The notes under the pieces were generated by a model, which did no database searches, was not told where the DNA came from, and saw only the letters and a list, made by a program, of their open reading frames with translations. Below are positions 38,420 through 57,345 of a stretch of 64,000 nt of DNA, piece after piece; the stretch's first letter is position 1; each line of letters begins with the position of its first letter. The DNA is from Candidatus Microgenomates bacterium (lineage in GTDB: Bacteria; Patescibacteriota; Microgenomatia; UBA8517): the NCBI GenBank assembly GCA_049523135.1, contig JBEKNE010000001.1:287770-351769 (forward strand), read 5' to 3'. The position numbers and the translations under genes were made by a program.

Positions 38420-39428
38420 TCCATATCTAGATACGTTAGGGGGAGGGGAACGATATACTCTTTCTTTTGCAAAAGTACTTACCGACTTGGGTTGGCAGAC
38501 AGATCTAGAGTGGAAAGATTTGGGGATATTAAAAAGTCTTTCGGAGCGATTTGGAATGGATCTATCCGGAATAAACATTGTAGAGGATGTAAAAAAAGGA
38601 GATGGTTATGATCTTTGTTTTTGGGTTTCGGATGGAAGCGTTCCATTACTCCACGGCAGAAACAACATTCTCCATTTTCAGGTGCCGTTTCATAATGTGG
38701 GTGGAAAAAGTCTGCTTAATAAAATGAAATTTTTTAGGATTAATAAAATTGTCTGCAACTCGCGTTTTACAAAAGAGATAATCGATAAGGAATATGGCGT
38801 TGATAGTATAGTGATTTATCCGCCGGTAGGTATTGAAAACATAAAACCTAAGAGGAAGGAAAATATTATTCTATATGTAGGTAGATTTTCAAAAATACTT
38901 CAAAGCAAAAGACAAGATGTCCTTATTAAAGCCTTTAAGAAAATTTACAATAATGGATTTTCGGATTGGAAACTAATTCTTGCAGGTGGGGCGGAGGTTG
39001 GAAATGACGGTTGTGTTGATGAGTTAGAGAAGCTTTCTGAAAATTACCCTATTGAAATATTGGTTAGCCCAAGTTATAAGGAGCTAAAGGATTTATATGG
39101 AAAGGCGAAGTTTTTTTGGAGTGCAGCTGGTTTTGAGGAAAATGAAACAAAAAATCCGGAAAAAGTTGAGCATTTTGGAATAACTGTTGTCGAAGCAATG
39201 GCGGGTGGTGCAGTACCAGTTGTCTATAATGCGGGTGGTTATAAAGAAGTTGTTGAGAATGGGAAAACAGGGTTTCTGTGGAATAGGACTTCAGAACTAA
39301 CTAGATTTACTACTTCCTTGGCTGAAGATCCAAAATCTTTTAGAGAGATGCAAGTTCATATAAAAGAAAGAGCGAAAAAATATGACTATAACATTTTTAA
39401 AGAAAGGATTAAGGAAATTCTTAAATAA
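38400..39428 (+). CDS. GT4-family (GT-B) glycosyltransferase
   Basis: The C-terminal EX7E region EHFGITVVEAMAGGAVPVV...GKTGFL is typical of GT4. Confidence 0.8.
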   Translation: MRAAIYNPYLDTLGGGERYTLSFAKVLTDLGWQTDLEWKDLGILKSLSERFGMDLSGINIVEDVKKGDGYDLCFWVSDGSVPLLHGRNNILHFQVPFHNVGGKSLLNKMKFFRINKIVCNSRFTKEIIDKEYGVDSIVIYPPVGIENIKPKRKENIILYVGRFSKILQSKRQDVLIKAFKKIYNNGFSDWKLILAGGAEVGNDGCVDELEKLSENYPIEILVSPSYKELKDLYGKAKFFWSAAGFEENETKNPEKVEHFGITVVEAMAGGAVPVVYNAGGYKEVVENGKTGFLWNRTSELTRFTTSLAEDPKSFREMQVHIKERAKKYDYNIFKERIKEILK

Positions 39429-41766
39429 GTTTTGGCCCATATTTGCAATACTTGTTGTTGTAGCTGTATTTTTTTACCCCGTTTTTTTAAAAAAACTTGC
39501 TCCAATTCCCGGTGATTTTATAGTTGGAACTTATTTCCCTTGGTTGGATTATAAATGGGGATACTTAGTTAGGGTTCCTGTTAAAAATCCCATAACTTCC
39601 GATGTAGTCTCAATAATTTACCCCCTAAGAAGTTATGCAGTTGACATCCTTAAAACTGGGCATCTGCCTTTATGGAACCCGTTTATGTTTGCAGGAACAC
39701 CACTGCTTGGGGATTTTCAGGTAGGAGTGCTTTCTCCCACAATATTTACCTATTTTATATTGCCAAAAATTTGGGCGTGGAGTGCTCAAGTAATTTTGCA
39801 ACCAGTTCTTGCTGCCATTTTTTGTTATTTACTTTTGCGGAATTTTGGCCTGAAGAAAATTGAGTCTATTTTTGGGGGAATATTTTTTGCGTTTAGTGCA
39901 TTTAATATAATTTGGATGGAATGGAACACGAATACCTTAACGGCAGCTTTTATCCCACTAGTTATATTATTTTTGGATAAGTTTATTGATACTAACAAGT
40001 TATTTTGGGGGGTATTACTGTCATTCAGTATTGAGTTACAGGTACTTTCTGGGTATCCACAGTTGGTTATATTTACAATATTTTTTCTCGGGCTATTTCT
40101 TCTCTTTCGATTAGATAGACTTAACAAGGTTAAAGCATTTTATATTTTTATTTTTATACTTCTTGGTATTTTGCTTTCCTCAATTGTTTCAGTGCCAGCA
40201 TCTGAACTGATATTAAATTCTCAGAGAAAATATGCAATTTTAGATAAAGATTTAATATATTTTCCTTGGCAAAACTTAATTACTTTTTTGGTTCCTGACT
40301 ATTTTGGAAATTCTGCAACCTATAACTACTTCGGAGCTGGCAATTATACAATAAATACTGGTTATACAGGATTAATTGTTTTATATCTTGCAGTCATTGG
40401 GGCCTTTAAGTATTGGAGGGAAAGGAAAGTAAAATTTTTGGTTGCAACATTCTTGTTGGCTCTTCTATTTGCTTTGCCAACTCCTTTGGGTAAAGCACTT
40501 TTTAACTCACCAATTCCTGGGATTTCTCTCTCTTCGAATACAAGAATTTTGGTATTCACGAATTTTTCCTTAGCAGTTCTTGCCGCTTTGGGTATTTCAG
40601 CCCTTCTAAAGAAAGAGAAAATTCATAGCGTCTTCTTTTTTACTATGCCTTTATTAATAATTCTTTTAATTATTTTTGGCATAACCCATTTTTTTGGTGT
40701 GAACAAAAGCGTTTCTCTGAGAAATATGATTTTGCCGGTTGGTTTAGCAATATTTGCTTCATGTTTGATTTTTGTTAGGGAAAGATTGTTTAGGAGTAAT
40801 CTATTGAGACAACTGTTGGTAATAACTCTGTGTTTAGTCGCGGTATTTGAGCTTTTTAGATATGGCTGGAAGTACACTCCTTTTTCTTCACCAAATCTTG
40901 TTTTTCCAAAAACACCCGTTTTAGACTTTCTTGATAATAAGAATGGCATCTTTCGAGTATCTACTGGGAATGCAATTCCAATGAATATGTGGATTCCCTA
41001 TGGTTTTGAATCTGTTTCTGGATATGATGCTTCGTACCCTATACAGTGGGCAAGGTTTTTTGATGCAATTCGAGGTGGAAATTTAGATAAACCTTCTTAT
41101 AGCTATTATGCGCAGTTTGATCAATATTTTAGTCCTTGGTTTGATTTGTTAAATAACAAATATTTGCTTACCCTGGATCCCTCGGAAACACATGATATAT
41201 CCAACCCAGATCTTTTTTATCAGATTGAAAAAAGTCAAAAGTTTGAGAAGGTATTTCAGGACAAATCAGTTGTTATCTATCAGAATAATAGTGTCTTACC
41301 GCGAGCTTTTTTGGTCTCGGATTGGGAATATGTTTCTGAAGATCAAACTCTTTCCGTCTTAACAGATCCCGATTTTCCGGTAGAGAAGAAAATAGTTTTA
41401 AATGTACCCATACCACTTGATAAAAATCAGAAAATAACTGGCGAGGTGGCTTATGAATCTTATTCACCCGAGGATAGTGTTATCCGTGTTACAACAAATA
41501 AAGAAGCCCTTCTTTTTGTATCTGATACTTGGTATCCGGGTTGGAATGTTACCGTAGACGGAAAGAAATCTACTTTATATAAAGCAGATTATACATTTCG
41601 GGCAGTTCTTGTTCCCGTAGGATCCCATAAAGTAGAATTTTATTTTAAACCGAAGTCCGTAATGATCGGTAAGATACTATCATTTACTACTTTAATATTG
41701 TTAGTTGTGTTATTAATTTTTGAGAGACAACTTACATTAAGAATAAATAAGAACGAGAAGACATAA
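39382..41766 (+). CDS. YfhO-family GT-C membrane glycosyltransferase (long form, ~790 aa)
   Basis: About 14 TM helices, then a C-terminal extracytoplasmic domain ending in the YfhO-type module WYPGWNVTVDGKKSTLYKADYTFRAVLVPVGSHKVEFYF and a final TM helix. Confidence 0.7.
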   Translation: MTITFLKKGLRKFLNKFWPIFAILVVVAVFFYPVFLKKLAPIPGDFIVGTYFPWLDYKWGYLVRVPVKNPITSDVVSIIYPLRSYAVDILKTGHLPLWNPFMFAGTPLLGDFQVGVLSPTIFTYFILPKIWAWSAQVILQPVLAAIFCYLLLRNFGLKKIESIFGGIFFAFSAFNIIWMEWNTNTLTAAFIPLVILFLDKFIDTNKLFWGVLLSFSIELQVLSGYPQLVIFTIFFLGLFLLFRLDRLNKVKAFYIFIFILLGILLSSIVSVPASELILNSQRKYAILDKDLIYFPWQNLITFLVPDYFGNSATYNYFGAGNYTINTGYTGLIVLYLAVIGAFKYWRERKVKFLVATFLLALLFALPTPLGKALFNSPIPGISLSSNTRILVFTNFSLAVLAALGISALLKKEKIHSVFFFTMPLLIILLIIFGITHFFGVNKSVSLRNMILPVGLAIFASCLIFVRERLFRSNLLRQLLVITLCLVAVFELFRYGWKYTPFSSPNLVFPKTPVLDFLDNKNGIFRVSTGNAIPMNMWIPYGFESVSGYDASYPIQWARFFDAIRGGNLDKPSYSYYAQFDQYFSPWFDLLNNKYLLTLDPSETHDISNPDLFYQIEKSQKFEKVFQDKSVVIYQNNSVLPRAFLVSDWEYVSEDQTLSVLTDPDFPVEKKIVLNVPIPLDKNQKITGEVAYESYSPEDSVIRVTTNKEALLFVSDTWYPGWNVTVDGKKSTLYKADYTFRAVLVPVGSHKVEFYFKPKSVMIGKILSFTTLILLVVLLIFERQLTLRINKNEKT

Positions 41767-45752: not shown

Positions 45753-47255
45753 GTGGAAGAAGATGCTTTTGGAGGTCATATTGATCCTACATCCGAGATA
45801 AACCTTGAGACTGTTAAAGGAAGAACAGTAAAAGGGATAGTTGCCTTAACCCAACAGTATTTTGGCGTTTATATAATCACCATAATTGCCTACTTCTTCC
45901 TGGGTAAATTTTTGAACCCTGTGCTTTTTGGGACATTTGGGGTAGTCTCGGCAATTATCAACTTTTTGGTTTACTTTTCCGATATCGGGTTAGCAGCTTC
46001 CTTAATTCAGAAAAAAGAAAAGATTACTCAAGAAGACTTGAGAACAACTTTTACAATTCAGCAAATCCTTGTATTTACCCTGGTAGCAATTGTTATCGGT
46101 GCAACTTCTCTTATAAGACGGTTTTACAACCTGGATCAGAGTTCCGTATATCTTCTTTATGCACTTTGTTTTTCTTTCATAATGTCCTCACTTAAATCAG
46201 TGCCGTCGGTAATCTTGGAGAGACATTTAAAATTCGAAATAATTGCCCTTTCAGCAGTTATAGAAACCACGGTTTACAATGTAATTTTGGTATTTTTTGC
46301 TTGGAAAGGGTTTGGAATTACCAGTTTTACTATTTCGGTAATTGCGAGAGGAATCATTGGTGTAATAGTTTTGTATTTGTTTCAGCCATGGAGACCGGTG
46401 CTCCAGATATCCAGACCGTCACTTAAAAAACTTCTTGTTTTTGGAATTCCTTATCAAATAAACACGTTTATTGCCGTTGTTAAAGATGATGGATTAACTC
46501 TAATTTTGGGTAGAGTAATAGGATTGGGACCTCTTGGAATTCTTTCCTGGGCCCAAGGATGGATTCAAATGCCCCTGAGAGTAATTCTTGATAATGTAAC
46601 CAGAGTTACTTTCCCTGCCTTTTCCAGAATGCAGGATAAAACCGATGAATTAAAAAAGAGCGTAACAAGTTCTATCTTTTTTATTACCTTTTTAGTTTTC
46701 CCTGCGGTTACCGGAATTGTTATTTTGGCCCCTATTGTTTTTCAGACGATACCTAAATTCCAGCAGTGGATGCCTGCAGTTATCCCTCTTACTTTTCTTG
46801 CGGTGAATGTTCTTTTTGCCGCGGTTACGACACAATTAACCAATCTTCTCAATGCAGTGGGTAAGATCAAAATAACTTCAGGCCTCATGATAATGTGGAC
46901 TGCTTTAACTTGGATTCTTGTTCCCTATTTAGGGGTGAAATATGGAGTAAATGGAGCCTCGTTAGGTTATGCGATTGTTGGAGCATCTTCGGTTGTGGCA
47001 ATAGCAATAGCGAAAAGATATGTTGATTTTTCTCTATCGGAAAGTACTCTTAAACCGCTTTTAGCTTCATTTGTAATGGGAGTAACCTTGTTCGTTTTGA
47101 GAAGATTTTTACCTGTTAATCTTTACTCAATATTTATATTGACTATAGTGGGAATGGTGACTTATTTTGCTTCAATTTTTGCTCTTGTCGGGATGTCGAT
47201 AGTTACAGACGTTAAGAGAGTTGTCGGATTAATAATTCACAAAAATGAAGCTTAA
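45753..47255 (+). CDS. Wzx-like MOP-superfamily polysaccharide/oligosaccharide flippase
   Basis: GTG start directly after an in-frame TGA. 12-14 TM helices with the MOP/Wzx N-terminal pattern (KG..VKG...L.....FG...). Confidence 0.7.
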   Translation: MEEDAFGGHIDPTSEINLETVKGRTVKGIVALTQQYFGVYIITIIAYFFLGKFLNPVLFGTFGVVSAIINFLVYFSDIGLAASLIQKKEKITQEDLRTTFTIQQILVFTLVAIVIGATSLIRRFYNLDQSSVYLLYALCFSFIMSSLKSVPSVILERHLKFEIIALSAVIETTVYNVILVFFAWKGFGITSFTISVIARGIIGVIVLYLFQPWRPVLQISRPSLKKLLVFGIPYQINTFIAVVKDDGLTLILGRVIGLGPLGILSWAQGWIQMPLRVILDNVTRVTFPAFSRMQDKTDELKKSVTSSIFFITFLVFPAVTGIVILAPIVFQTIPKFQQWMPAVIPLTFLAVNVLFAAVTTQLTNLLNAVGKIKITSGLMIMWTALTWILVPYLGVKYGVNGASLGYAIVGASSVVAIAIAKRYVDFSLSESTLKPLLASFVMGVTLFVLRRFLPVNLYSIFILTIVGMVTYFASIFALVGMSIVTDVKRVVGLIIHKNEA

Positions 47256-48933
47256 TTGGAAAAAGTGGCTTTTGATTTTGGTTGGGTCGATCACATGGTC
47301 TTTAACCATGGTCAGAAGTGGCTTAACTTATTCTTTTGGAATAGGCTTTTGGGGAGCAAACGGGCACGATGGAATTTGGCATATTGCACTAATTAAAAGT
47401 TTGGCTAAGGGAAATTTCCAAATGCCAATTTTTTCCGGTTGGGGAATACAAAATTACCATATCGGCTTTGATTTACTTCTTTCATATATAGTCAGGTTTA
47501 CCAAAATCTCCCCATCTTTCCTGTATTTTCAGATAGTTCCTCCACTGCTCGCTCTTTTTATAGGTTTTCTGACGTATAAATTTGTTTATCTTTGGAGAAA
47601 GTCTGAAGGTCAGTCACTTCTCGCAGTATTTTTCGTGTATTTCGGTGGAAGTTTTGGATGGCTTATCTCACTGATCAGCAATCAGGGTTGGGGAGGGGAA
47701 AGCATGTTCTGGTCTCAGCAGTCAATCTCCACCCTTATTAATCCCCCTTTTGCACTTTCTTTAATAATAATTCTTGCCGGATTAATTTATCTGAAAAAAT
47801 ATTTGGAAAAGAAATTGTTGTTAAATTTTTGTCTTACGGTTTTCTTTTTCGGCATATCGATTTTTATTAAAGTTTATGCAGGTCTTTTGGTGTTAATATC
47901 AATTTTGGTTGCTTCTATCTGGCAAGTTATCAAAAAGAAGAATTATTCTTTGCTTGGGATAACTTTAGTATCCGGGATAATATCTCTACTCTTATTTTTG
48001 CCGTTTAATAAATCGTCTGCCAATTTAATTTCCTTTAATCCTTTCTGGTTTTTACAAACAATGCTTATTGCGGCGGATCGGCTGGATTGGCAAAAGCTAT
48101 ATTCGGCAATGACAACTTATGCAAGCGGACATATTTGGATAAAAGCAGTGCTTGCTTATGGCTTGGCATTTATAATTTTTATTCTTGGTAATTTCGGTAC
48201 CAGGATTATCGCTCTAAAATCATTATTCAAAAAACCTAAAAAGTTATTATTGGCAGGCCCTATCGAAATCTTCATTTTTACTCTTATTGCGGCAGGTATA
48301 ACTGTACCCATGCTTTTTACTCAAAAAGGAACAGCATGGAATACGATCCAGTTTTTATATTACTCGCTGATTTTTGCAGGAATAGTGGCAGGGATAGAAA
48401 TAGATAGTTGGGTTAATAATTTATCTTTGTTCAAAAAGAGTTTAATAATAATTGTTTTTGTATTGATTACAATTCCGACCACTATTGCCTCAATGGATAA
48501 TTATTTCCCGGTTAAGCCTCAATCAATGCTTCCAACTAGTGAGGTTGAGGCTTTGAAATTTCTCTCGACCCAACCTGATGGAGTAGTTTTAACTTATCCG
48601 TTTGATGCGGATAAAGCTCTGGCGGCAAAACCCCCAAGACCTTTATATCTCTATACGTCCACAGCTTATGTTTCTGCTTTTTCCGGAAAGACAACCTTTT
48701 TAGAGGATCAGATAAATTTAGATATTATGCAATATCCCTGGCAGGAGAGAAGAGCTTCCGTTGAAGACTTCTTAAATATGGCAAATACTTTTACGGCCCA
48801 ATCTTTTCTCAAGGAAAACGATATATCATATGTTTACTGGATTACGGGTCAGCATGCAAAAATACCTGATGTTAATTTGAGTCTCATGCCTATATTTAAA
48901 AACAGTGATGTAACAATTTTCAAGGTAAAGTAA
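47245..48933 (+). CDS. Uncharacterised polytopic membrane protein, 'NGHDGxWH' family (family B; candidate polymerase/ligase or GT-C)
   Basis: Many TM helices plus a ~150-aa C-terminal soluble domain. Clear paralog of 54065..55903, sharing GANGHDGIWHIAL, FGGSFGW..GGESMFW and the C-terminal VVLTYPFD...AFSGKTTF motifs. Confidence 0.5.
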   Translation: MKLNWKKWLLILVGSITWSLTMVRSGLTYSFGIGFWGANGHDGIWHIALIKSLAKGNFQMPIFSGWGIQNYHIGFDLLLSYIVRFTKISPSFLYFQIVPPLLALFIGFLTYKFVYLWRKSEGQSLLAVFFVYFGGSFGWLISLISNQGWGGESMFWSQQSISTLINPPFALSLIIILAGLIYLKKYLEKKLLLNFCLTVFFFGISIFIKVYAGLLVLISILVASIWQVIKKKNYSLLGITLVSGIISLLLFLPFNKSSANLISFNPFWFLQTMLIAADRLDWQKLYSAMTTYASGHIWIKAVLAYGLAFIIFILGNFGTRIIALKSLFKKPKKLLLAGPIEIFIFTLIAAGITVPMLFTQKGTAWNTIQFLYYSLIFAGIVAGIEIDSWVNNLSLFKKSLIIIVFVLITIPTTIASMDNYFPVKPQSMLPTSEVEALKFLSTQPDGVVLTYPFDADKALAAKPPRPLYLYTSTAYVSAFSGKTTFLEDQINLDIMQYPWQERRASVEDFLNMANTFTAQSFLKENDISYVYWITGQHAKIPDVNLSLMPIFKNSDVTIFKVK

Positions 48934-48935
48934 AG

Positions 48936-50621
48936 ATGTTTAAAAATCTTATTAATAATAAAATATTTTGGGTAATCATTATTACACTCTTAACTATTCC
49001 GACATTTTGGAGCATGTGCAGAGCAGGCTACTTTCCGATGCAGGATGACCTTCAGGCTTTTAGGATTTATGAGATGGATAAATGCTGGCAGGATTTTCAA
49101 ATTCCCTGTCGTTGGGTTCCAGATGCCGGATATGAATATGGTTACCCGCAATTTAACTATTATCCTCCGAGTGTTTACTACGTGGGAGAAGCCATCCATA
49201 AAGTGGGATTTCAATTTATTGATTCAGTAAAAATACTCTTTGCATTAGGTTTTGTTCTGTCTGCACTTGCAATGTTCCTTTTGGTTAGCGATATTCTGGG
49301 GAATTTTCCAGGATTTGTGTCCGCTCTTATCTATACGTACGTTCCCTATAAAGCTGTTGATGTTTATGTAAGAGGTGACATGAGTGAATTTTGGTCAATG
49401 GTATTTTACCCGTTGGTTTTTTGGGCCGTTTATAAAATTATTAGGACAGCAAAGTGGAGGTATATAGCTTTGCTCGCCGTTTCTCTGGGACTGCTTTTTA
49501 TGACGCACCTTCTCATGTCTATGATTTTTTCTTTGTCGGCAGCCGTGTGGACTCTCTATTGGTTAATTAAAGAAAAGAAGTTCAAACGAATTTATAGAGT
49601 TATTGCCGGGGTTGCCTTGGGGTTTGGTTTTGCGGCATTTTATGTTTTACCAGTAATTCTTGAGAGGCAATATGCCCACACGGAGACACTTACTGAAGGC
49701 TATTTCGGTTATCAACAGCATTTTGTGAACCTTTATAAATTGTTTATTTCCAGAGAATGGGGGTATGGGTCTTCTGGCTTTCCTAATGAGAAGTTAAATC
49801 TTTCGACGGGGTTGATTCAGTGGATATTTGGGCTTATTACAATCGGAATTGCAAGTCTTTATATATTACTTAAGAAAAAGAAAGAGCATCTTTACCTTGT
49901 TCTCACTTTGGGTGCACTTGAGCTTTTTACTCTTTTTATGATTCATGTAAAGTCCAGTTTTATTTGGAATGCTATCCCAATTCTTTCCTGGCTGCAATTT
50001 CCGTGGCGGTTTTTGGCTATCAGTATTTTCCTTTTGGCAATTTTAGCCGGAATTGGGGTTTATCTTATACCAAAATTTAAAGTTTGGGTTGGGTTAGCAA
50101 TTATCTTAATAGCTTTCGTGCTTAACGTCGGTTATTTTATACCGAAGGCTTGGGAGAATATTACTGATGCTGACAAGTTCTCAGGAGTTTCGTGGCAAAA
50201 GGAGCTTACAATCAGCATTTTTGATTACTTGCCGATATATGCTAAACTTCCGCCGATAACCGCCGCTCCCGCTACTCCCGAGGTTCTTGAGGGAATGGCG
50301 ACGTTTTCAAATTATACAAAAGGCAGCGATTTCCAAAGGGGAATTATCAATACCGGTAAAAATGGAGCGCTAATAAGGCTTCCGCTTTTTGACTTCCCAG
50401 GGATGGTTGCAAAAATTGACGGAAATGTTGTTGCCCATGTTAACAATAATTGTCAGGGTGAGGAATTTTGCTTGGGGCTTATTACTTTTGAAGTACCTAG
50501 TGGAGAACATAAAATTGAAGTAGAATTAACAGATACGCTGGTGCGGAGGGTTGGCAATTATTTATCAATTGTTTCGTTAGTTGCCGTTGGCGGACTTTAT
50601 ATTTTTAAAAGAAAGAAATGA
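48936..50621 (+). CDS. YfhO-related short-form GT-C membrane protein (family C)
   Basis: First-loop FPMQDDLQAFRIYEMD. The C-terminal module FDFPGMVAKIDGNVV...EVPSGEHKIEVEL plus a terminal TM matches the C-terminus of the YfhO-like gene at 39382... Confidence 0.55.
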   Translation: MFKNLINNKIFWVIIITLLTIPTFWSMCRAGYFPMQDDLQAFRIYEMDKCWQDFQIPCRWVPDAGYEYGYPQFNYYPPSVYYVGEAIHKVGFQFIDSVKILFALGFVLSALAMFLLVSDILGNFPGFVSALIYTYVPYKAVDVYVRGDMSEFWSMVFYPLVFWAVYKIIRTAKWRYIALLAVSLGLLFMTHLLMSMIFSLSAAVWTLYWLIKEKKFKRIYRVIAGVALGFGFAAFYVLPVILERQYAHTETLTEGYFGYQQHFVNLYKLFISREWGYGSSGFPNEKLNLSTGLIQWIFGLITIGIASLYILLKKKKEHLYLVLTLGALELFTLFMIHVKSSFIWNAIPILSWLQFPWRFLAISIFLLAILAGIGVYLIPKFKVWVGLAIILIAFVLNVGYFIPKAWENITDADKFSGVSWQKELTISIFDYLPIYAKLPPITAAPATPEVLEGMATFSNYTKGSDFQRGIINTGKNGALIRLPLFDFPGMVAKIDGNVVAHVNNNCQGEEFCLGLITFEVPSGEHKIEVELTDTLVRRVGNYLSIVSLVAVGGLYIFKRKK

Positions 50622-52312
50622 AGAACTTTTCAAAAATTATAAAAGCTTTAAGTAAATTTTGGTGGGTTTTGATTTTGCTGTGTTTAATTCCTTCTTTCAA
50701 CAGGTTAATTCACAAAGGCTTTTTCCCGACTCAGGATTATATATATGTTGCCCGGATTTATGAGATGGATAAATCTCTCAAAGATGGGCAATTTCCGGTA
50801 AGGTGGGTTCCGGATTTTCGCTACGGTGAACCGCTTTTTAATTATTATGCGCCACTTCCTTATTATTTGGGATCTGTAATTCACACTTTCAATTTCAGTT
50901 TTCTTGATACCTCCAAGATTCTCTATGCACTGGGATTGATTCTTTCGTTTGGTACAATGTACATTCTTGGAAAAGAACTTTGGGGAAAGGCGGGGGGATT
51001 GATATCCGGCTTTGTTTATCTTTATGCTCCCTACCGGGCGGTGGATATTTTTGTTAGGGGAGATATTTCGGAGAGCTGGGTATTTGTATTTTTCCCGCTT
51101 TGTTTTTGGGCGGCTTTGAGATTGTCAAAAAAGGTTAACGGCAAAAATATTTTTCTTCTCGCAATATCTTTAGCCGGACTTTTCTTTACGCATAATGTGA
51201 TGACCATGCTTTTTGCTCCGTTTTTTGCGCTTTGGATACTTTATTTAGTTTGGGATAGAAAGAAATTTAGTCTGATTTATCCTCTGGTATTTTCTTCAGT
51301 TTTGGCCGCAGGTGTCGCAGCAAGCTTTCTTCTACCGGCATTTTTTGAAAGATCGTATATTCAGACGCAGCACTTGACGGGAGGATATTTTGATTTCAGA
51401 GGACATTTTGTGGAACTTAAGCAATTCTTTTCAACTTTCTGGGGATATGGCGCCTCGGTTTGGGGTCCGGAAGACGGCATGTCTTTCCAGGTTGGGGTAG
51501 TCCAATGGGTGACGATTGGGTTGACTCTTGTTTTTGCATTTATAAAAAGAAAGCAGATTATAAAAGATCGGACAATATATCTTCTCGTGGTGGTTTTTGC
51601 ATCATTTCTTTTCTCCCTATTTATGCAACATAACAGATCAACTTTTATTTGGCTTGCGGTACCCATGCTTCAATATGTCCAGTTTCCGTGGAGATTTCTG
51701 GCAATAACAGTTTTCTTTGTTGCGGTTTTTGCCGGAAGTTTGGCGAAATTACTACCCAAGTATAAATATGCAATATTAACTTTGGTGGTGATCTCTTGTA
51801 TTGCTTTTACTTATAACTATTTCAGACCCGAAAGTTATTATGATGATGCAACCGATGCTGGTTATATTTCCCAGCAAACCCTTTCGATTGACGATAAACT
51901 TCCCAAAGATTACTTGCCTATTTGGGTGAAAAAAATAACATCTCCAAAGATAACTCAACCGCAGATAGTCAGCGGCCAAGCGAATGCTTCGGATTATTCC
52001 GCAAGGAGCAACTCCGCAACCTTTAACATAAATGTTGAAAAGAATTCAGTAATTGATGTTCCTTTGACATATTTTCCAGGATGGGTAGCCGAACTAAACG
52101 GGAAGAAAATTTCTTTAATGGATCCGTCGGACCTTGGAATCATCAGATTTTCGGTACCGGAAGGAAATTATAAAATTTCTCTTTATTTGGGTAATACTCC
52201 GCTTAGGGAAGCAGCTAATATTATTTCCGTTATATCTATTCTGGGTTGTCTTGTCTTTGTTTTGTATAAAGGTCCATTATGTGTCTGGAGAAAAGGCGAT
52301 AAAAATAATTAA
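50618..52312 (+). CDS. YfhO-related short-form GT-C membrane protein (family C paralog)
   Basis: FPTQDYIYVARIYEMD, and the C-terminal YFPGWVAELNGKKISL...SVPEGNYKISLYL module plus terminal TM. Tandem paralog of 48936... Confidence 0.55.
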   Translation: MKNFSKIIKALSKFWWVLILLCLIPSFNRLIHKGFFPTQDYIYVARIYEMDKSLKDGQFPVRWVPDFRYGEPLFNYYAPLPYYLGSVIHTFNFSFLDTSKILYALGLILSFGTMYILGKELWGKAGGLISGFVYLYAPYRAVDIFVRGDISESWVFVFFPLCFWAALRLSKKVNGKNIFLLAISLAGLFFTHNVMTMLFAPFFALWILYLVWDRKKFSLIYPLVFSSVLAAGVAASFLLPAFFERSYIQTQHLTGGYFDFRGHFVELKQFFSTFWGYGASVWGPEDGMSFQVGVVQWVTIGLTLVFAFIKRKQIIKDRTIYLLVVVFASFLFSLFMQHNRSTFIWLAVPMLQYVQFPWRFLAITVFFVAVFAGSLAKLLPKYKYAILTLVVISCIAFTYNYFRPESYYDDATDAGYISQQTLSIDDKLPKDYLPIWVKKITSPKITQPQIVSGQANASDYSARSNSATFNINVEKNSVIDVPLTYFPGWVAELNGKKISLMDPSDLGIIRFSVPEGNYKISLYLGNTPLREAANIISVISILGCLVFVLYKGPLCVWRKGDKNN

Positions 52313-52315
52313 TCT

Positions 52316-53515
52316 GTGAAAAAATTATTAATTTTGGCAATTGTATTGCGAGTTTTGGTGGCAGCATTTTTTTTCCATCCGGATATTAAAACTTTTAACT
52401 ACCAAGCTTCATTTTTAAAACAAGGGGTTTTTAATATCTATTCTTATTTAGTTGACAATAAAGCGCGTTTGCCTCTGAAGGATAATTTCGTTTATTTTCC
52501 TCTAACATATTTTACCCTTGGTGGATATCAAGCCGCCATCTCGCCAATATTGGGTAGGGGATTTGATAGTTGGTTAGGAAATCCTGACTCCGCCACTATG
52601 GTTACCAATCCGAATATCTTCGGATATATGTTGGCCTTAAAATTGCCATATTTGGTTTTGGATATTCTGGTGGCATACATGCTTTTGAAGTTTATTGAGG
52701 ATAGGAAGAAGGCTCAAAAAGCATTTCTAATTTGGCTCTTTAATCCCATCACAATAATACTTATTTATGTTTATGGGAATATTGATATTTTTCCGGTTGT
52801 TCTTACTGTTTTTTCCCTCCTGCTTATTAAAAAAGACAAGCTGAAGTCTGCGGTAGCCATCTTGGGACTGGCTGCGGGTTTTAAGCTTTATCCTCTGCTT
52901 TTGGTGCCTTTTTTGGCTCTTGCCGGCAAAAATACTAAGGAAAAAATTTGGTTGGTGGCAATTCCCTTTTTAATATTCGGGGCAATATGTGTTCCATTTT
53001 TGTCTGGAGCTTTTGTTCAATCGGCGTTAATCTCCGGTCTTACAACAGGAACCTTTAGCCCGAGTTTTAGCGTTGGATTCGGCGAATCAATAATTGTGGG
53101 TTTGGTCGGAATGACGGTTCTTTTTTTCTATGAAATGCTGATAAATAAAAAACCCAACGTTTTAATTTATTGGATAGCGCTTTTGATGATCATCTTTTCT
53201 TTTTCCCATTTCCATATTCAGTGGCTTTTGTGGGTTGCACCGTTTATAACAATAATTTTGGCGGAGGATAGCGACCTTACCTTGTTAATTTCTTCAGTTT
53301 CAGTAATGGCAGTTGCGATCCCTCTTTTGTACGAAGATCGTTTTATGACGATGGGGCTTTTGCGTACCTTTAGTCTTTATTACGATATGTTGCCAACACC
53401 GTTTGTGGTTATACAAAGAGTGTTTGACCCTTATAATTTGCAGAGCATTTTACATTCTATGATGGCAGGTGGCACACTGGTTATGATATATAGACTATTT
53501 AAAGTAAAATCATGA
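52316..53515 (+). CDS. GT-C membrane glycosyltransferase, GT87/DUF2029-like
   Basis: GTG start; about 10 TM helices; AAGFKLYPLLLVP motif. Related to 30085..31275. Confidence 0.55.
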   Translation: MKKLLILAIVLRVLVAAFFFHPDIKTFNYQASFLKQGVFNIYSYLVDNKARLPLKDNFVYFPLTYFTLGGYQAAISPILGRGFDSWLGNPDSATMVTNPNIFGYMLALKLPYLVLDILVAYMLLKFIEDRKKAQKAFLIWLFNPITIILIYVYGNIDIFPVVLTVFSLLLIKKDKLKSAVAILGLAAGFKLYPLLLVPFLALAGKNTKEKIWLVAIPFLIFGAICVPFLSGAFVQSALISGLTTGTFSPSFSVGFGESIIVGLVGMTVLFFYEMLINKKPNVLIYWIALLMIIFSFSHFHIQWLLWVAPFITIILAEDSDLTLLISSVSVMAVAIPLLYEDRFMTMGLLRTFSLYYDMLPTPFVVIQRVFDPYNLQSILHSMMAGGTLVMIYRLFKVKS

Positions 53516-54108
53516 AAAAGCTTATTTGGTTTACCAGTATTTTTATTTTAGTTTTAATATTTATAGTCCCCGCAATTATGGTGTTAGGAATTAAGATAAT
53601 TCCTTCTGATGTTCAACCACCCCTTCAATATACACAAGATGTTTATCAGGATCTCTACATATCTCAGGAATTTACCAGTCTTTTACCAAATCTTACAGAT
53701 ATTGGTATGTCCATCAAAAACCCAAATCTTAAAGATCAAAATGATATAACTCTTTCTTTGTACGATCAGAATGGGCAGCTGGTTAGGACTTCAAAACTAA
53801 ATGGACTAAATATTGGCGATGGAGCTTTCGTTAAATTCCAATTTAGTCCTATTATAGATTCCCTGAATCAGAGATATTCGTTTACCATAATGTCTCCGTC
53901 CTCCTATCCTGAAGATTTATTTGAACTTTTTTACACGGATGACAAGCCTTCGTGGATAGGTCAGATGCAATTTAACGGTAAGAATGTGGTCGGAGGGCTT
54001 TCGTTTGTAACTTTTCACCAACCTGTAAGTAAGATTGGTTTGATTAAGAGTATCTATTCCGATTTCATTTCCAGATTTCTACATCTTCATTCTCAAAAAT
54101 CAATTTAA
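53512..54108 (+). CDS. Hypothetical membrane-anchored exported protein inside the GT-C array
   Basis: Start overlaps the upstream stop. N-terminal TM anchor followed by a beta-rich ~170-aa domain. The 3' end overlaps the convergent gene by ~44 nt. Confidence 0.4.
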   Translation: MKKLIWFTSIFILVLIFIVPAIMVLGIKIIPSDVQPPLQYTQDVYQDLYISQEFTSLLPNLTDIGMSIKNPNLKDQNDITLSLYDQNGQLVRTSKLNGLNIGDGAFVKFQFSPIIDSLNQRYSFTIMSPSSYPEDLFELFYTDDKPSWIGQMQFNGKNVVGGLSFVTFHQPVSKIGLIKSIYSDFISRFLHLHSQKSI

Positions 54109-55903
54109 GCCCTATCTTTGACGGGTCAACGACGGGTTTCATTGCTTTGGGGTAGTAAAGAATATTTGCACTGGATTTTTCAAAAGCCGATTTCACTTCA
54201 TTGATATTTTTATCCGAAAATACGGTAGTTTTTATATCCAACCTTGGTTTCCAATTATAGCCCATGATATCCACTTGTTCGTAGTCGTCCATGAAAGTTC
54301 TTCTATCCGAAAATGCGGCGAGGTAAGATGTATCAAACCAATCCCAAATATTTGGAGTATCTCCTCCGAGATTAAGATATGGATTGTATGGAGGAGTTAG
54401 TATTACCGAATTTTGTGGAGTATCTTTCTTTAAGAAATTTATTGCTTGCAGTTCCTGTGCGCTTATCATTGCGTAAGCCGGTCGGGAATAAAATTCATAA
54501 AGTAGGCCAACTTGAGTCGGAATCATTAAGAGAATGATCATAGGTATAAGTAGTTTGTATTTAGAAGTAAGCTTGGAAACTTCTATACCTGCCAGAATTC
54601 CGAAAAAGAGCAAAAAGTATTGTAAAAATTGAATGGTGTTACTAGCTATACCATTCTGCAGGAATAGGAGAGGAAAGATAATCGATAGTGCAATTGCAAC
54701 CTTAATAAATAAGTGTGTTTTCAAATACTGACGTAGCCCCAGGAATCTCATACCCAGGTTACCGAAAAAGAAAATCAAGAAGGCAATACCTTCGTACTCA
54801 ATTACTCTTAAAATAGATTTGATTCCTCCATGGGCTACGTAAAATTCCCTTCTGAGTTCCAAGTCTAGCCAATTAAGCCTAGAAGGTTCTACCACCATTG
54901 TCCGTATATACCACCAAGGTTGGAAAATTAGAAACGAGGTTGAATTGGAGGCGTTTGGAAAATATAGGAATACAGATAAAGCTCCACTTATGATGGTCAG
55001 GAATATAAGTGTTATATCCTTTTTCCTAAAAAACTTCCATAGACTATAAATGCCGAGGGAAATTAGAGCTATAATTCCGGCATAAACTTTAAAACTGACT
55101 AGGGTTCCAAAAAGGATTATACAAATTATAAATAAGATATTTCTTTTCTTTTTATCTTTTTCCCGCTCTAAACTTATCAAAAAATATAAAGCGGTAAAAA
55201 TCAGAAAATCCGATGCTATTTGAGGAGAATTTCCGCTTGCACTTTGTGGCTGGCTGGCCCAGAAAATACTTTCTCCGCCGATGGTTCTATTTTTTAGATA
55301 AGTAACGATAAATCCAAAACTTCCGGCGAAATAGGAAAAAATTGTTGACCAGATAGCAGCTGATTTTTCCCCATCAGCTTTTTTTATCAGAAAGTATGCA
55401 GATACACCAAAGAACAGAGAGTAAATAAAAGGAAATATGCGAAAATATAAATCAATGTTGTTAACCGGTGTATATTTACTTACAACCGCTGGCAATATAT
55501 CACTGAAGAAATGATAGTTGACGAGTTTTTCTCCGGCAAGAACAGGATTTTGGAAAGGCCAGCCTCTTTTTATTTCATTCATAAGGGCAATATGCCAGCT
55601 TCCGTCGTGTCCATTAGAACTCCAAAAAAGTAAGTCTCCTGCTTTATCAAAAGTTCCACTTGGGGAAATCACCGCTAATTGTCCCGCAATACCAACAACA
55701 AAGACCAAAATTGTAATGATGGCGGTTAAATCAAATTTGACCCTAATAGATTTAACTATTTTAATGAATGACTTTGCTGCCAGTATTACCCCGATAATTA
55801 CAATTGGGATAATAAGATATAATCCGTGAATTAATATTAAAAGATAGGAGATAAGTGTTAATGTGGCAAATGCAGCAATTCCACTCATTAGTATTTCTTC
55901 CAT
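54065..55903 (-). CDS. Uncharacterised polytopic membrane protein, 'NGHDGxWH' family (family B paralog)
   Basis: SSNGHDGSWHIAL, FAGSFGF...GGESIFW and a C-terminal VILTPPYN...AFSDRRTF domain, collinear with 47245... Start set at the internal ATG (MEEILMSG...); the longest ORF begins with TTG at 55936. Confidence 0.5.
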   Translation of the reverse strand: MEEILMSGIAAFATLTLISYLLILIHGLYLIIPIVIIGVILAAKSFIKIVKSIRVKFDLTAIITILVFVVGIAGQLAVISPSGTFDKAGDLLFWSSNGHDGSWHIALMNEIKRGWPFQNPVLAGEKLVNYHFFSDILPAVVSKYTPVNNIDLYFRIFPFIYSLFFGVSAYFLIKKADGEKSAAIWSTIFSYFAGSFGFIVTYLKNRTIGGESIFWASQPQSASGNSPQIASDFLIFTALYFLISLEREKDKKKRNILFIICIILFGTLVSFKVYAGIIALISLGIYSLWKFFRKKDITLIFLTIISGALSVFLYFPNASNSTSFLIFQPWWYIRTMVVEPSRLNWLDLELRREFYVAHGGIKSILRVIEYEGIAFLIFFFGNLGMRFLGLRQYLKTHLFIKVAIALSIIFPLLFLQNGIASNTIQFLQYFLLFFGILAGIEVSKLTSKYKLLIPMIILLMIPTQVGLLYEFYSRPAYAMISAQELQAINFLKKDTPQNSVILTPPYNPYLNLGGDTPNIWDWFDTSYLAAFSDRRTFMDDYEQVDIMGYNWKPRLDIKTTVFSDKNINEVKSAFEKSSANILYYPKAMKPVVDPSKIGLKLIFENEDVEIWK

Positions 55904-55929
55904 ATATAAATTATATATAATAGTAGCAT

Positions 55930-57345
55930 ATGGCAAAGAAGTTGTGGCTAATTCTTCTCGGAATTGTAACTCTGGGGTTTGTTATAAGGGTTTACAAAAT
56001 TCAATCCCTTCCTATGTATGGTGACGAGTTGACGATGGTTTATGATGAATACTCCATTCTTAAAACCGGAATGGATGCAACAGGTCAAAAATTTCCCTTA
56101 ACTTTCAAGATGGGAGCAGGACGACCTGGTGGGTATATTTATTTTTCTGTTCCATTTGTTGCAGTTTTCGGACCCACGCTTTGGGGAGAAAGAACACTAT
56201 CCCTACTTTCAGGTCTTGGGATTATAGTCCTGATGTATTTCTTGGGTAAAAAACTTTTTAACGAAAAAGTTGGGATAATAGCATCTCTTCTTACTGCTGT
56301 TTGTCCTTGGGACATTTATCTAAGTCGGGCCGGTTTTGAGGCGCATTTTGCTTTATTTTTGGCGCTTTTGGGAGTAGTATTTTTTCTTGATAAAAAATAT
56401 ATTGGGTGGGCAATTGCATGGGGACTCACCATTTTTACGTATCCAACCTTTAAATTAACTCTTCCTTTAATGTTAATTTTTCTAGTTTTTTGGAAAGGAA
56501 TTAAAGATATTGTTAAGGATAAAATTTTTTGGATAGGAATTGTTGTTCTTGCAGTTTTCGGATTAATAATCGGTTATCAAACGTTTTTTGCGGGAAGCGA
56601 GCAAAGATTTTTCTCACTAAATATTTTTTCTGATGAAACCATAAAAAACAACATTATTCAGACTGTTGACAATGACAGGAATTTTGCGACATTGCCAATA
56701 GTTTTTAAGGATATATTTATAAATAGAGAAATTGAATATGGAAGGCTTCTTCTTGATAATTATGTAGCCAATCTTTCTCCGGATTTTCTATTTTTGAGGG
56801 GTGATGGACAACCACGCGACAATCCGGGAGAAATGGGAATGCTTTATTTAATTGATTTTCCGCTCTTGATTGCAGGTTTGGTTCTTCTTTGGAAAGATGA
56901 AAGAAAAAAATTTACTCTTCTTTTGGCTTGGATTTTAATTACCCCTTTAGCAACAATGTTTTTTATGAATCCGCATGCACTGAGAAATGATTTGATGATA
57001 CCACCACTGCTTGTAATTATTTCCTACGCTTTTACAAAGATATCAAGAAAGTTTACTTATGTTGCAATCGCTCTTATTGCAATTCAACTAATTTATATAT
57101 TAGTACATATTTACAATATTGCCCCTGCAAAGTTTGTATCGTTTTGGTCGGCGGATGCGGAATCGGTTGCTTTGAAAGCTATCCAGGCTCAAAAATCGGG
57201 ACAAAAAGTAACCTTAAATGTAACAAAAGTAGATAATATTGAATATGCATATGAAGTTTATGCGAAACTAGATCCGCGGGAAGTTATTGCCCAGTCGGGC
57301 AAATTTCCTAAAGTTTATGGCAATGTTACAATTACTGACAAATAA
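55930..57345 (+). CDS. GT-C membrane glycosyltransferase, ArnT/PMT-like (family A2)
   Basis: First-loop YGDELTMVYDEYSIL motif; polytopic; 471 aa. Confidence 0.7.
   Translation: MAKKLWLILLGIVTLGFVIRVYKIQSLPMYGDELTMVYDEYSILKTGMDATGQKFPLTFKMGAGRPGGYIYFSVPFVAVFGPTLWGERTLSLLSGLGIIVLMYFLGKKLFNEKVGIIASLLTAVCPWDIYLSRAGFEAHFALFLALLGVVFFLDKKYIGWAIAWGLTIFTYPTFKLTLPLMLIFLVFWKGIKDIVKDKIFWIGIVVLAVFGLIIGYQTFFAGSEQRFFSLNIFSDETIKNNIIQTVDNDRNFATLPIVFKDIFINREIEYGRLLLDNYVANLSPDFLFLRGDGQPRDNPGEMGMLYLIDFPLLIAGLVLLWKDERKKFTLLLAWILITPLATMFFMNPHALRNDLMIPPLLVIISYAFTKISRKFTYVAIALIAIQLIYILVHIYNIAPAKFVSFWSADAESVALKAIQAQKSGQKVTLNVTKVDNIEYAYEVYAKLDPREVIAQSGKFPKVYGNVTITDK

Follow-up and report, generated by a model that had tools for sequence, protein, structure and literature searches.

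Two short tandem GT-C proteins of a Microgenomates bacterium share their core and C-terminal module with a long YfhO-family protein

We analysed a stretch of 64,000 nucleotides from a Candidatus Microgenomates bacterium (GenBank assembly GCA_049523135.1, contig JBEKNE010000001.1, positions 287,770 to 351,769 of the forward strand), hereafter called the window. Two + strand open reading frames (ORFs), 48936-50621 and 50618-52312, overlap there by 4 nucleotides and encode membrane proteins of 561 and 564 amino acids (aa), which we compared with a longer protein encoded at 39382-41766. Very probably (we put it at about 85%), the three genes represent a single lineage of glycosyltransferases (GT) of the GT-C superfamily (YfhO, PF09586/PF10131), in which the short pair are compact tandem paralogs, the third gene encodes the canonical long form, and the C-terminal tail was inherited together with the core. 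The three genes are as follows (E, expect value).

48936..50621, + strand: short YfhO/PF10131-type GT-C paralog 1, 561 aa (ORF list; Pfam PF10131, E 7e-8; 40% identity to paralog 2)
50618..52312, + strand: short YfhO/PF10131-type GT-C paralog 2, 564 aa
39382..41766, + strand: long YfhO-family GT-C protein, 794 aa (Pfam YfhO, E 1.9e-21, 76.6 bits)

The two short proteins are paralogs over their full length (40% identity across 551 aa, E 5e-133). Both exceeded the gathering cutoff (26.4 bits) of PF10131 (PTPS_related, '6-pyruvoyl-tetrahydropterin synthase-related', GT-C clan CL0111), paralog 1 with 31.8 bits over positions 1-307 of the 621 in the profile and paralog 2 with 32.3 bits. On the Pfam YfhO profile (cutoff 28.5 bits), the long protein (76.6 bits) and paralog 2 (36.1 bits) passed. 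The long protein matched positions 97-595 and 760-835 of the 835 in this model; the short forms matched about 93-383 and about 757-822 and did not cover it in full, the middle part of about 370 positions being absent. NCBIfam gave no match for either short form. Most of the more than 2,400 homologs of the short form are annotated PF10131, and their NCBI names follow suit; the long protein has 881 homologs, nearly all annotated PF09586.

The original prediction, made by inspection of the sequence, was that the long and short proteins have a C-terminal module in common, which recurs more weakly in paralog 1. Both points were borne out. The translation of the long gene contains DTWYPGWNVTVDGKKSTLYKADYTFRAVLVPVGSHKVEFYF, that of paralog 2 contains TYFPGWVAELNGKKISL and then GNYKISLYL, and that of paralog 1 contains FDFPGMVAKIDGNVVAHV and then GEHKIEVEL; in each case a hydrophobic helix and a K/R-rich tail follow. 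The module occupies about 100 aa, namely a predicted beta-sandwich of about 70 aa with [FY]PG[WM]...[DN]G...G-x-[HY]-K-[VI], one transmembrane (TM) helix, and a basic tail. It was located as follows, A1 being the alignment of the short family (52 sequences), A2 that of the long family, and A3 that of the C-termini.

50283..50618, + strand: C-terminal module of paralog 1, aa 450-561 (alignment A3; E 1.7e-20 with the short-only and 2.2e-4 with the long-only profile)
51962..52189, + strand: beta-sandwich of paralog 2, aa 449-524, with FPGW, NGKK, and G-N-Y-K-I (AlphaFold2 strands; hhalign, E 4e-16)
52199..52264, + strand: final TM helix of paralog 2, aa 528-549 (AlphaFold2 helix; conservation in A1; hydropathy peak at 532-550)
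41425..41763, + strand: C-terminal module of the long protein, aa 682-794 (AlphaFold2; Pfam YfhO 760-835; NCBIfam PgfM1/PgfM2)

Pairwise, the C-termini of the long protein and paralog 2 were readily matched (BLASTP E 2e-7, 175 aa). When the beta part was compared without the helix by the Smith-Waterman method and the sequences were subjected to 2000 composition-preserving shuffles, z was 13.8 and none of the shuffles reached the observed score. The long protein and paralog 1 gave a weak match (BLASTP E 0.005 over 41 aa, mostly the TM helix; z 3.8 for the beta part, the score being reached by 9 of the 2000 shuffles). This weak pairing was secured by profiles that left one family out. Searched against the 247 ORFs of the window, a short-family profile built without the window proteins recovered paralog 1 with E 1.7e-20 and the long protein with E 2.4e-12, and a profile of the long family only recovered paralog 2 with E 2.6e-6 and paralog 1 with E 2.2e-4. 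No further ORF among the 247 carried the module (next best E above about 0.1), so that there are exactly three carriers. Alignment of the C-termini of both families with hhalign covered 102 columns with a probability of 98.7% (E 4.2e-16), which shows that the similarity extends over the entire module, not a few residues, and lies far above what composition would lead one to expect. The common pattern in A3 consists of several strands, [FY]PGW, [DN]G, G-x-[HY]-x-[VI], a linker with a conserved Gly, the hydrophobic helix, and the basic tail. The Pfam YfhO model matched the tail of the long protein at 760-835 (E 3.6e-13) and that of paralog 2 at 756-822. Thus, the module already belongs to a known family model, of which it makes up positions 750-835 or so. 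The C-terminus of paralog 1, taken in isolation, had no YfhO match in Pfam, and only the family-specific profiles recognised its module.

The membrane cores upstream of the module proved to be homologous as well. Two features of these regions are relevant here.

50720..50815, + strand: first extracytoplasmic loop motif of paralog 2, aa 35-66, FFPTQDYIYVARIYEMDKSLKDGQFPVRWVPD (alignment A1, AlphaFold2, hhalign)
40534..41376, + strand: middle segment found in the long protein only, aa 385-665 approximately (hhalign, hydropathy, profile A2_mid of this segment)

Comparison of A1 with A2 by hhalign aligned residues 1-348 of the short form with residues 10-384 of the long form (probability 99.2%, E 1.8e-19, 329 columns). 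It paired the short-form loop ARIYEMDKsLKDGQFPVRWVPD with PLRSYAVDiLKTGHLPLWNP of the long form. Because the long form has this aligned counterpart, the 'RIYEMD' motif is no mark of different cores, and the claim that the N-terminal halves differ was contradicted. The C-terminal halves aligned just over their last 124 columns or so (short 433-558, long 665-789). Between the two aligned regions, the long protein has about 280 residues, comprising about four hydrophobic helices (389-492) and a soluble region of about 190 aa, where the short forms have about 85 residues (349-433, approximately); A2_mid matched long-type relatives only. The three proteins are thus collinear at both ends and differ in the middle segment. 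Since the cores are homologous and the proteins collinear, the tail was in all probability inherited with the core, not recombined onto different cores.

The short proteins also show what is expected of the GT-C superfamily. They have a multi-helix membrane core with the GT-C fold and a conserved acidic residue in the first extracytoplasmic loop, where D40, R46, P60, R62, and W63 of paralog 2 are invariant among the 52 members in A1. D40, which directly follows helix 15-31 in the predicted secondary structure and corresponds to D37 of paralog 1 in the pairwise alignment, is the candidate catalytic acid or base.

AlphaFold2 modelled the short family with a predicted local distance difference test score (pLDDT) of 87.5 and a predicted template modelling score (pTM) of 0.89. 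The model has helices up to residue 401, six strands between 449 and 524 (449-463, 466-484, 489-493, 496-498, 508-513, and 516-524 in paralog 2), and a helix at 528-549. The module of the long protein, folded alone (pLDDT 93.9), had eight strands at about 687-755 and a long TM helix at about 758-793, so that a beta-sandwich followed by a helix was predicted for both families. Twelve helices were counted from the secondary structure of the model, and K/R-rich sequence is present both at the N-terminus and behind the last helix, so that the beta-sandwich, like the loop that follows helix 1, should lie outside the membrane. The model thus supports the suggestion that the module, which lies between the 11th predicted helix and the final TM helix, is most likely extracytoplasmic.

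The module of paralog 1 is a divergent subtype, in which FPGM replaces FPGW and an insertion of 7 aa brings in two Cys (NNNCQGEEFCLG); it ends with a TM helix at about 539-557 and the tail FKRKK. A subtype with FPG lacking the Trp and with a C-x-G-x-x-x-C loop was observed both in this protein and in a fusion protein from Shapirobacteria (locus L025, at about 1990-2190), and may be a disulfide-stabilised variant.

Searches of PDB sequences with the single proteins and with the short-family and module profiles found no relative. The module profile gave a marginal match (E 0.008) to 9k1u_D, an 89-aa chain of a Ser/Thr kinase, through PG-x-V-x-DG...G-x-Y. We took it as a lead on a generic motif of small beta-sandwiches rather than as homology; the matched part presumably resembles the small PEGA-like beta-sandwich domains.

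What the module does can be approached through its conservation and its structural neighbours. The module may be a structural brace rather than an acceptor-binding domain, an option that we regard as tentative and rate at somewhat less than an even chance: the beta-sandwich would pack on the external face of the core, the last helix would complete the helix bundle or the donor site, and R530 and N534 would act in donor binding or packing. The residues conserved across the long and short families are of a structural type (P, G, W, G, and, just ahead of the helix, a small residue), though the acceptors probably differ. At the outer end of the final helix, behind which the basic tail follows, the short family (A1) has an invariant R530 and a nearly invariant N534, and the high pTM of the whole-protein model suggests that the module is held in a fixed position against the core. 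In mycobacterial AftD (PDB 6wbx), TM12 likewise takes the chain back into the membrane behind the soluble domains; the beta-sandwiches of the same enzyme are, however, described as carbohydrate-binding modules (CBMs) (bioRxiv 10.1101/2019.12.22.885152), and the closest structural matches of the module are beta-sandwich domains attached to carbohydrate-active enzymes. A review also speculates that YfhO has external carbohydrate-binding domains (PMC8035078). Bracing and acceptor binding are, moreover, compatible with each other. The likeness to AftD is architectural only, with no shared family membership established: AftD has no detectable sequence similarity to the window proteins, is about 1,400 aa long, and carries, besides three CBMs, an additional four-helix bundle to which acyl carrier protein binds.

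A bolder proposal, which we consider unlikely, sees the beta-sandwich and re-entrant helix as an ancient feature that defines the YfhO/PF10131 clade as a whole, with its more than 70,000 representative proteins, and that corresponds in function to the last CBM and TM12 of AftD; the invariant Arg where the final helix begins would contribute to the lipid-phosphate donor or acceptor site. If this were true, the Microgenomates proteins of about 560 aa would be a minimal working version of the clade, and their arrays of two to four paralogs, including the subtype that lost the Trp and has the two Cys, would offer a compact setting in which to study the diversification of acceptor specificity.

The distribution of the module bears on the claim that a common module is combined with different membrane cores. 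At E <= 1e-3 the module profile matched 71,238 representative proteins, of which 25,418 remained at E <= 1e-10. Among the best-scoring 150 of these more than 71,000 matches, we examined the cores of the 69 that are at least 450 aa long. In these listed carriers, the module stands at the C-terminus of proteins of about 550 aa or about 750-830 aa, or occurs in two to four copies in proteins of 1,000-3,300 aa. Two core profiles derived from the window proteins, of the short and the long type, detected an upstream core throughout the 69, with five exceptions. These were P0294, which is a full-length Pfam YfhO protein, P0297, P0307, and P0371, in which no core was detected, and the MucBP repeat protein P0368, which we rejected as spurious because its match consists of just 26 profile positions that recur seven or eight times. 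Where a protein has several modules, a core was detected ahead of most copies, so that such proteins amount to [core-module]n fusions. Very long proteins such as P0242 (3329 aa), P0243 (3051 aa), and P0241 (1670 aa) consist of two to four consecutive units of core, beta-sandwich, and helix; they could be real fusions or result from gene-calling read-through of tandem arrays.

We also scanned species-representative genomes, which yielded 547 relatives of the short family, and kept 80 loci. In 50 of these, two to four short-type genes lie within 6 kb, and 157 of the 163 complete ORFs matched by the short-core profile carry the module. The six remaining ORFs are not short cores that lack it: some are PMT_2 proteins that the core profile cross-matches, others are fragments, and one (L025) is a fusion whose module is degenerate. 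These figures indicate that core and module are co-inherited and that tandem paralogy is the norm. In the window, none of about 12 PMT_2, GT87, or unclassified GT-C-like proteins carries the module. Because of this and of its presence on 157 of the 163 short-core ORFs, the module behaves, as far as sequence comparison can tell, as a vertically inherited hallmark of the YfhO/PF10131 lineage and not as a shuffled cassette.

Two further observations were made in the related loci. ORFs of about 720 aa in L008 (1474-3645) and L012 (787-2949) have an N-terminal GT2 domain fused to a PMT_2-type GT-C domain and thus join a cytoplasmic GT-A and a membrane GT-C in one polypeptide. In addition, many metagenome-assembled genomes with this Patescibacteria-type cluster are titled 'uncultured Gammaproteobacteria bacterium' (L006, L010-L012, and others, from binchicken assemblies), which looks like a labelling artefact.

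That the module is a mobile acceptor-binding cassette of beta-sandwich and helix, recombined onto different GT-C cores, is therefore very improbable in general, and is already contradicted for the three window proteins. The idea draws on the compactness of the module, which folds separately in prediction, on N-terminal halves that are unalike by eye and in pairwise BLAST, and on the suggestion that YfhO binds its acceptor through extracellular carbohydrate-binding domains (PMC8035078); P0263 (DUF2079), P0353 (DUF7657), P0307, P0371, and P0297, moreover, had no recognisable Pfam YfhO core or weak other matches. Against this, the cores are homologous at 99.2% probability, loop-1 motif included, the proteins are collinear at both ends, and across the window and the 80 related loci the module was absent from every PMT_2, GT87, and unclassified GT-C protein, while almost all complete short-core ORFs carry it. 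P0263 and P0353 are ruled out as carriers of a non-YfhO core, since the family profile found a long-type core in both (E 6e-56 and 4e-61, respectively). It is scarcely conceivable that the C-terminal likeness arose by chance or from the composition of beta-rich, hydrophobic sequence, an explanation for which the weak pairing of the long protein with paralog 1 might speak, given the shuffle result for paralog 2 (z 13.8), the hhalign result (E 4e-16), leave-family-out profiles that match just three of 247 ORFs, and the independent Pfam YfhO match to the same segment.

Several observations weigh against placing the three genes in one lineage with a co-inherited tail. Both short proteins cover positions 1-314 of the 621 in PF10131 only, and paralog 1, with 25.1 bits over positions 93-383, falls under the Pfam YfhO cutoff. 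PF10131 itself has no described function and is listed as 'function unknown' (PMC7801869). The equivalence of the loop-1 Asp is ambiguous, since D40 of the short form pairs with D56 of the long form, yet the invariant one is D45. The carrier survey, drawn from the top of a very large set of matches, leaves room for rare combinations of the module with other cores. Finally, in P0299, P0272, P0307, P0371, and P0297, Pfam recognised the module and nothing else; the long-core profile detected a core in P0299 and P0272 and not in the other three.

With the YfhO family (PF09586), known for example from Bacillus subtilis, Staphylococcus aureus, and Listeria monocytogenes, the short proteins share a homologous GT-C core (99.2% probability by hhalign to the YfhO protein of the window) and the same terminal beta-sandwich and TM helix (profile positions 750-835 or thereabouts). 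The gene context may be comparable as well. In the CsbB/GtcA/YfhO systems, YfhO is found with GT2 lipid-phosphate-sugar synthases and a GtrA domain and takes part in a three-component transfer of N-acetylglucosamine to lipoteichoic or wall teichoic acid (PMC8035078, PMC5836110); here the counterparts would be a GT2-GtrA fusion (28666-29814) and further GT2 genes, alongside numerous GT-C genes. The short forms differ in being about 230 aa shorter, through the absence of profile positions 384-756 or so (extra helices and a large external domain), and in their host, a member of the Microgenomates (Patescibacteria), for which no teichoic acid or other acceptor is known. Streptococcal enzymes of the same family, PgfM1 and PgtC2, O-glycosylate proteins in the pairs PgfS/PgfM1 and GtrB/PgtC2 (PMC12041528), so that the family, to which PgfM2 also belongs, is able to act on proteins as well as on teichoic acids. 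In NCBIfam, the module of the long window protein has matches to the C-terminal ends of the streptococcal PgfM1 and PgfM2 (NF047589/NF047590; E 5.5e-8 and 1.5e-8), but over the last 75 residues or so only and with 31-33 bits against cutoffs of 1400/1500, so that they are not equivalogs; the short forms have no match at all. The window proteins are thus ordinary, already catalogued YfhO/PF10131-type GT-C paralogs, with no new mix-and-match architecture, and the name of PF10131 is a historical misnomer.

The short pair sits within a + strand block of about 35 kb that, according to Pfam scans, consists almost entirely of glycosylation genes. Besides at least 12 multi-helix proteins matching PMT_2, PMT, or GT87, the block encodes several GT2, one GT4, a Wzx-type flippase, a GT2-GtrA/DPMS fusion, and RmlD. 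Three of its genes may provide substrates to the GT-C enzymes or move them.

28666..29814, + strand: GT2 fused to a GtrA/DPMS TM domain, 382 aa (Pfam Glycos_transf_2 E 9e-27, GtrA_DPMS_TM E 9.8e-13)
36005..36751, + strand: small GT2, 248 aa, second candidate lipid-phosphate-sugar synthase (Pfam Glycos_transf_2 E 3.4e-29)
45753..47255, + strand: Wzx-type polysaccharide flippase (Pfam Polysacc_synt_3 E 2.6e-51)

Judging from its domains, the GT2-GtrA fusion is a probable polyprenyl-phosphate-sugar synthase that would supply the donor to the GT-C enzymes. The fusion is kept in the syntenic cluster of a relative (L005 2831-4018), whose 942-kb contig has the same layout, tandem short pair included. 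The GC content of the region is about 36%. Exact copies of it are present in metagenome assemblies from JGI, Logan, and ENA, and its nearest named relatives are Daviesbacteria, Woesebacteria, Shapirobacteria, Collierbacteria, and other Microgenomates/Patescibacteria.

GT-C-like genes, at least 14 in number, are unusually densely packed from 31986 to 63720; nearly all lie on one strand, frequently with overlapping stop and start codons. They comprise PMT_2/PMT genes starting at 31986, 34506, 42730, 44218, 55930, 57287, 58896, 60551, and 62119, a GT87-like gene at 52316, the YfhO-type genes at 39382, 48936, and 50618, and two unclassified genes. These two flank the short pair, at 47245-48933 (+ strand) and 54065-55936 (- strand), which encode paralogous multi-helix membrane proteins of 562 and 623 aa (33% identity, E 2e-90) with the common motif NGHDG-WHIAL. 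Neither has a match in Pfam or NCBIfam, and they may represent an undescribed family of membrane glycan-processing proteins. An unannotated gene of a relative (1154 aa) follows the flippase in a position comparable to theirs. The gene at 53512-54108 (+ strand) encodes a 198-aa protein with a single N-terminal hydrophobic helix and no Pfam match. In the relative's cluster (L004/L005), a gene of similar size, also without a Pfam match and with only its first part within the locus, takes a comparable position just downstream of a Mannosyl_trans-like gene.

The literature on YfhO-family enzymes, homology, and gene context together suggest how such proteins could work. We infer donor, acceptor, catalytic residue, and module role from these, starting from the homology, collinearity, fold, distribution, and gene context described above. 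The cytoplasmic GT2 enzymes of the cluster would load sugar onto polyprenyl phosphate, the lipid-linked sugar would be flipped across the membrane, and each GT-C enzyme, working on the outer face, would then transfer the sugar to a glycan or protein at the cell surface. By analogy with YfhO-family enzymes, the short paralogs too might transfer sugar from lipid phosphate, the loop-1 Asp (D40 in paralog 2, D37 in paralog 1) acting in catalysis. The presumed layout of the lineage is an N-terminal multi-helix GT-C core with this Asp-containing first external loop, then the beta-sandwich with [FY]PGW...DG...G-x-H, and then a final TM helix leading back to the cytoplasm; the 794-aa protein is then the canonical long form, and the pair of about 560 aa the compact form, in which the additional helices and the large soluble domain of the middle part are absent. 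The beta-sandwich and terminal helix probably cap or brace the core on its external side, where they may touch the acceptor, and the acceptors or linkages served probably differ from paralog to paralog.

The value of these findings lies mainly in annotation: Microgenomates proteins that NCBI names '6-pyruvoyl-tetrahydropterin synthase-related' are compact YfhO-type GT-C glycosyltransferases, and the [FY]PGW beta-sandwich with its terminal helix is a dependable signature of the YfhO/PF10131 lineage. This branch has no sequence relative that we could find among solved structures, and the compact form of about 560 aa, with its confident predicted structure, could suit a first structural or biochemical study of it. 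For the organisms themselves, the dense array of GT-C paralogs is consistent with a heavy investment of small-genome bacteria in surface glycosylation.

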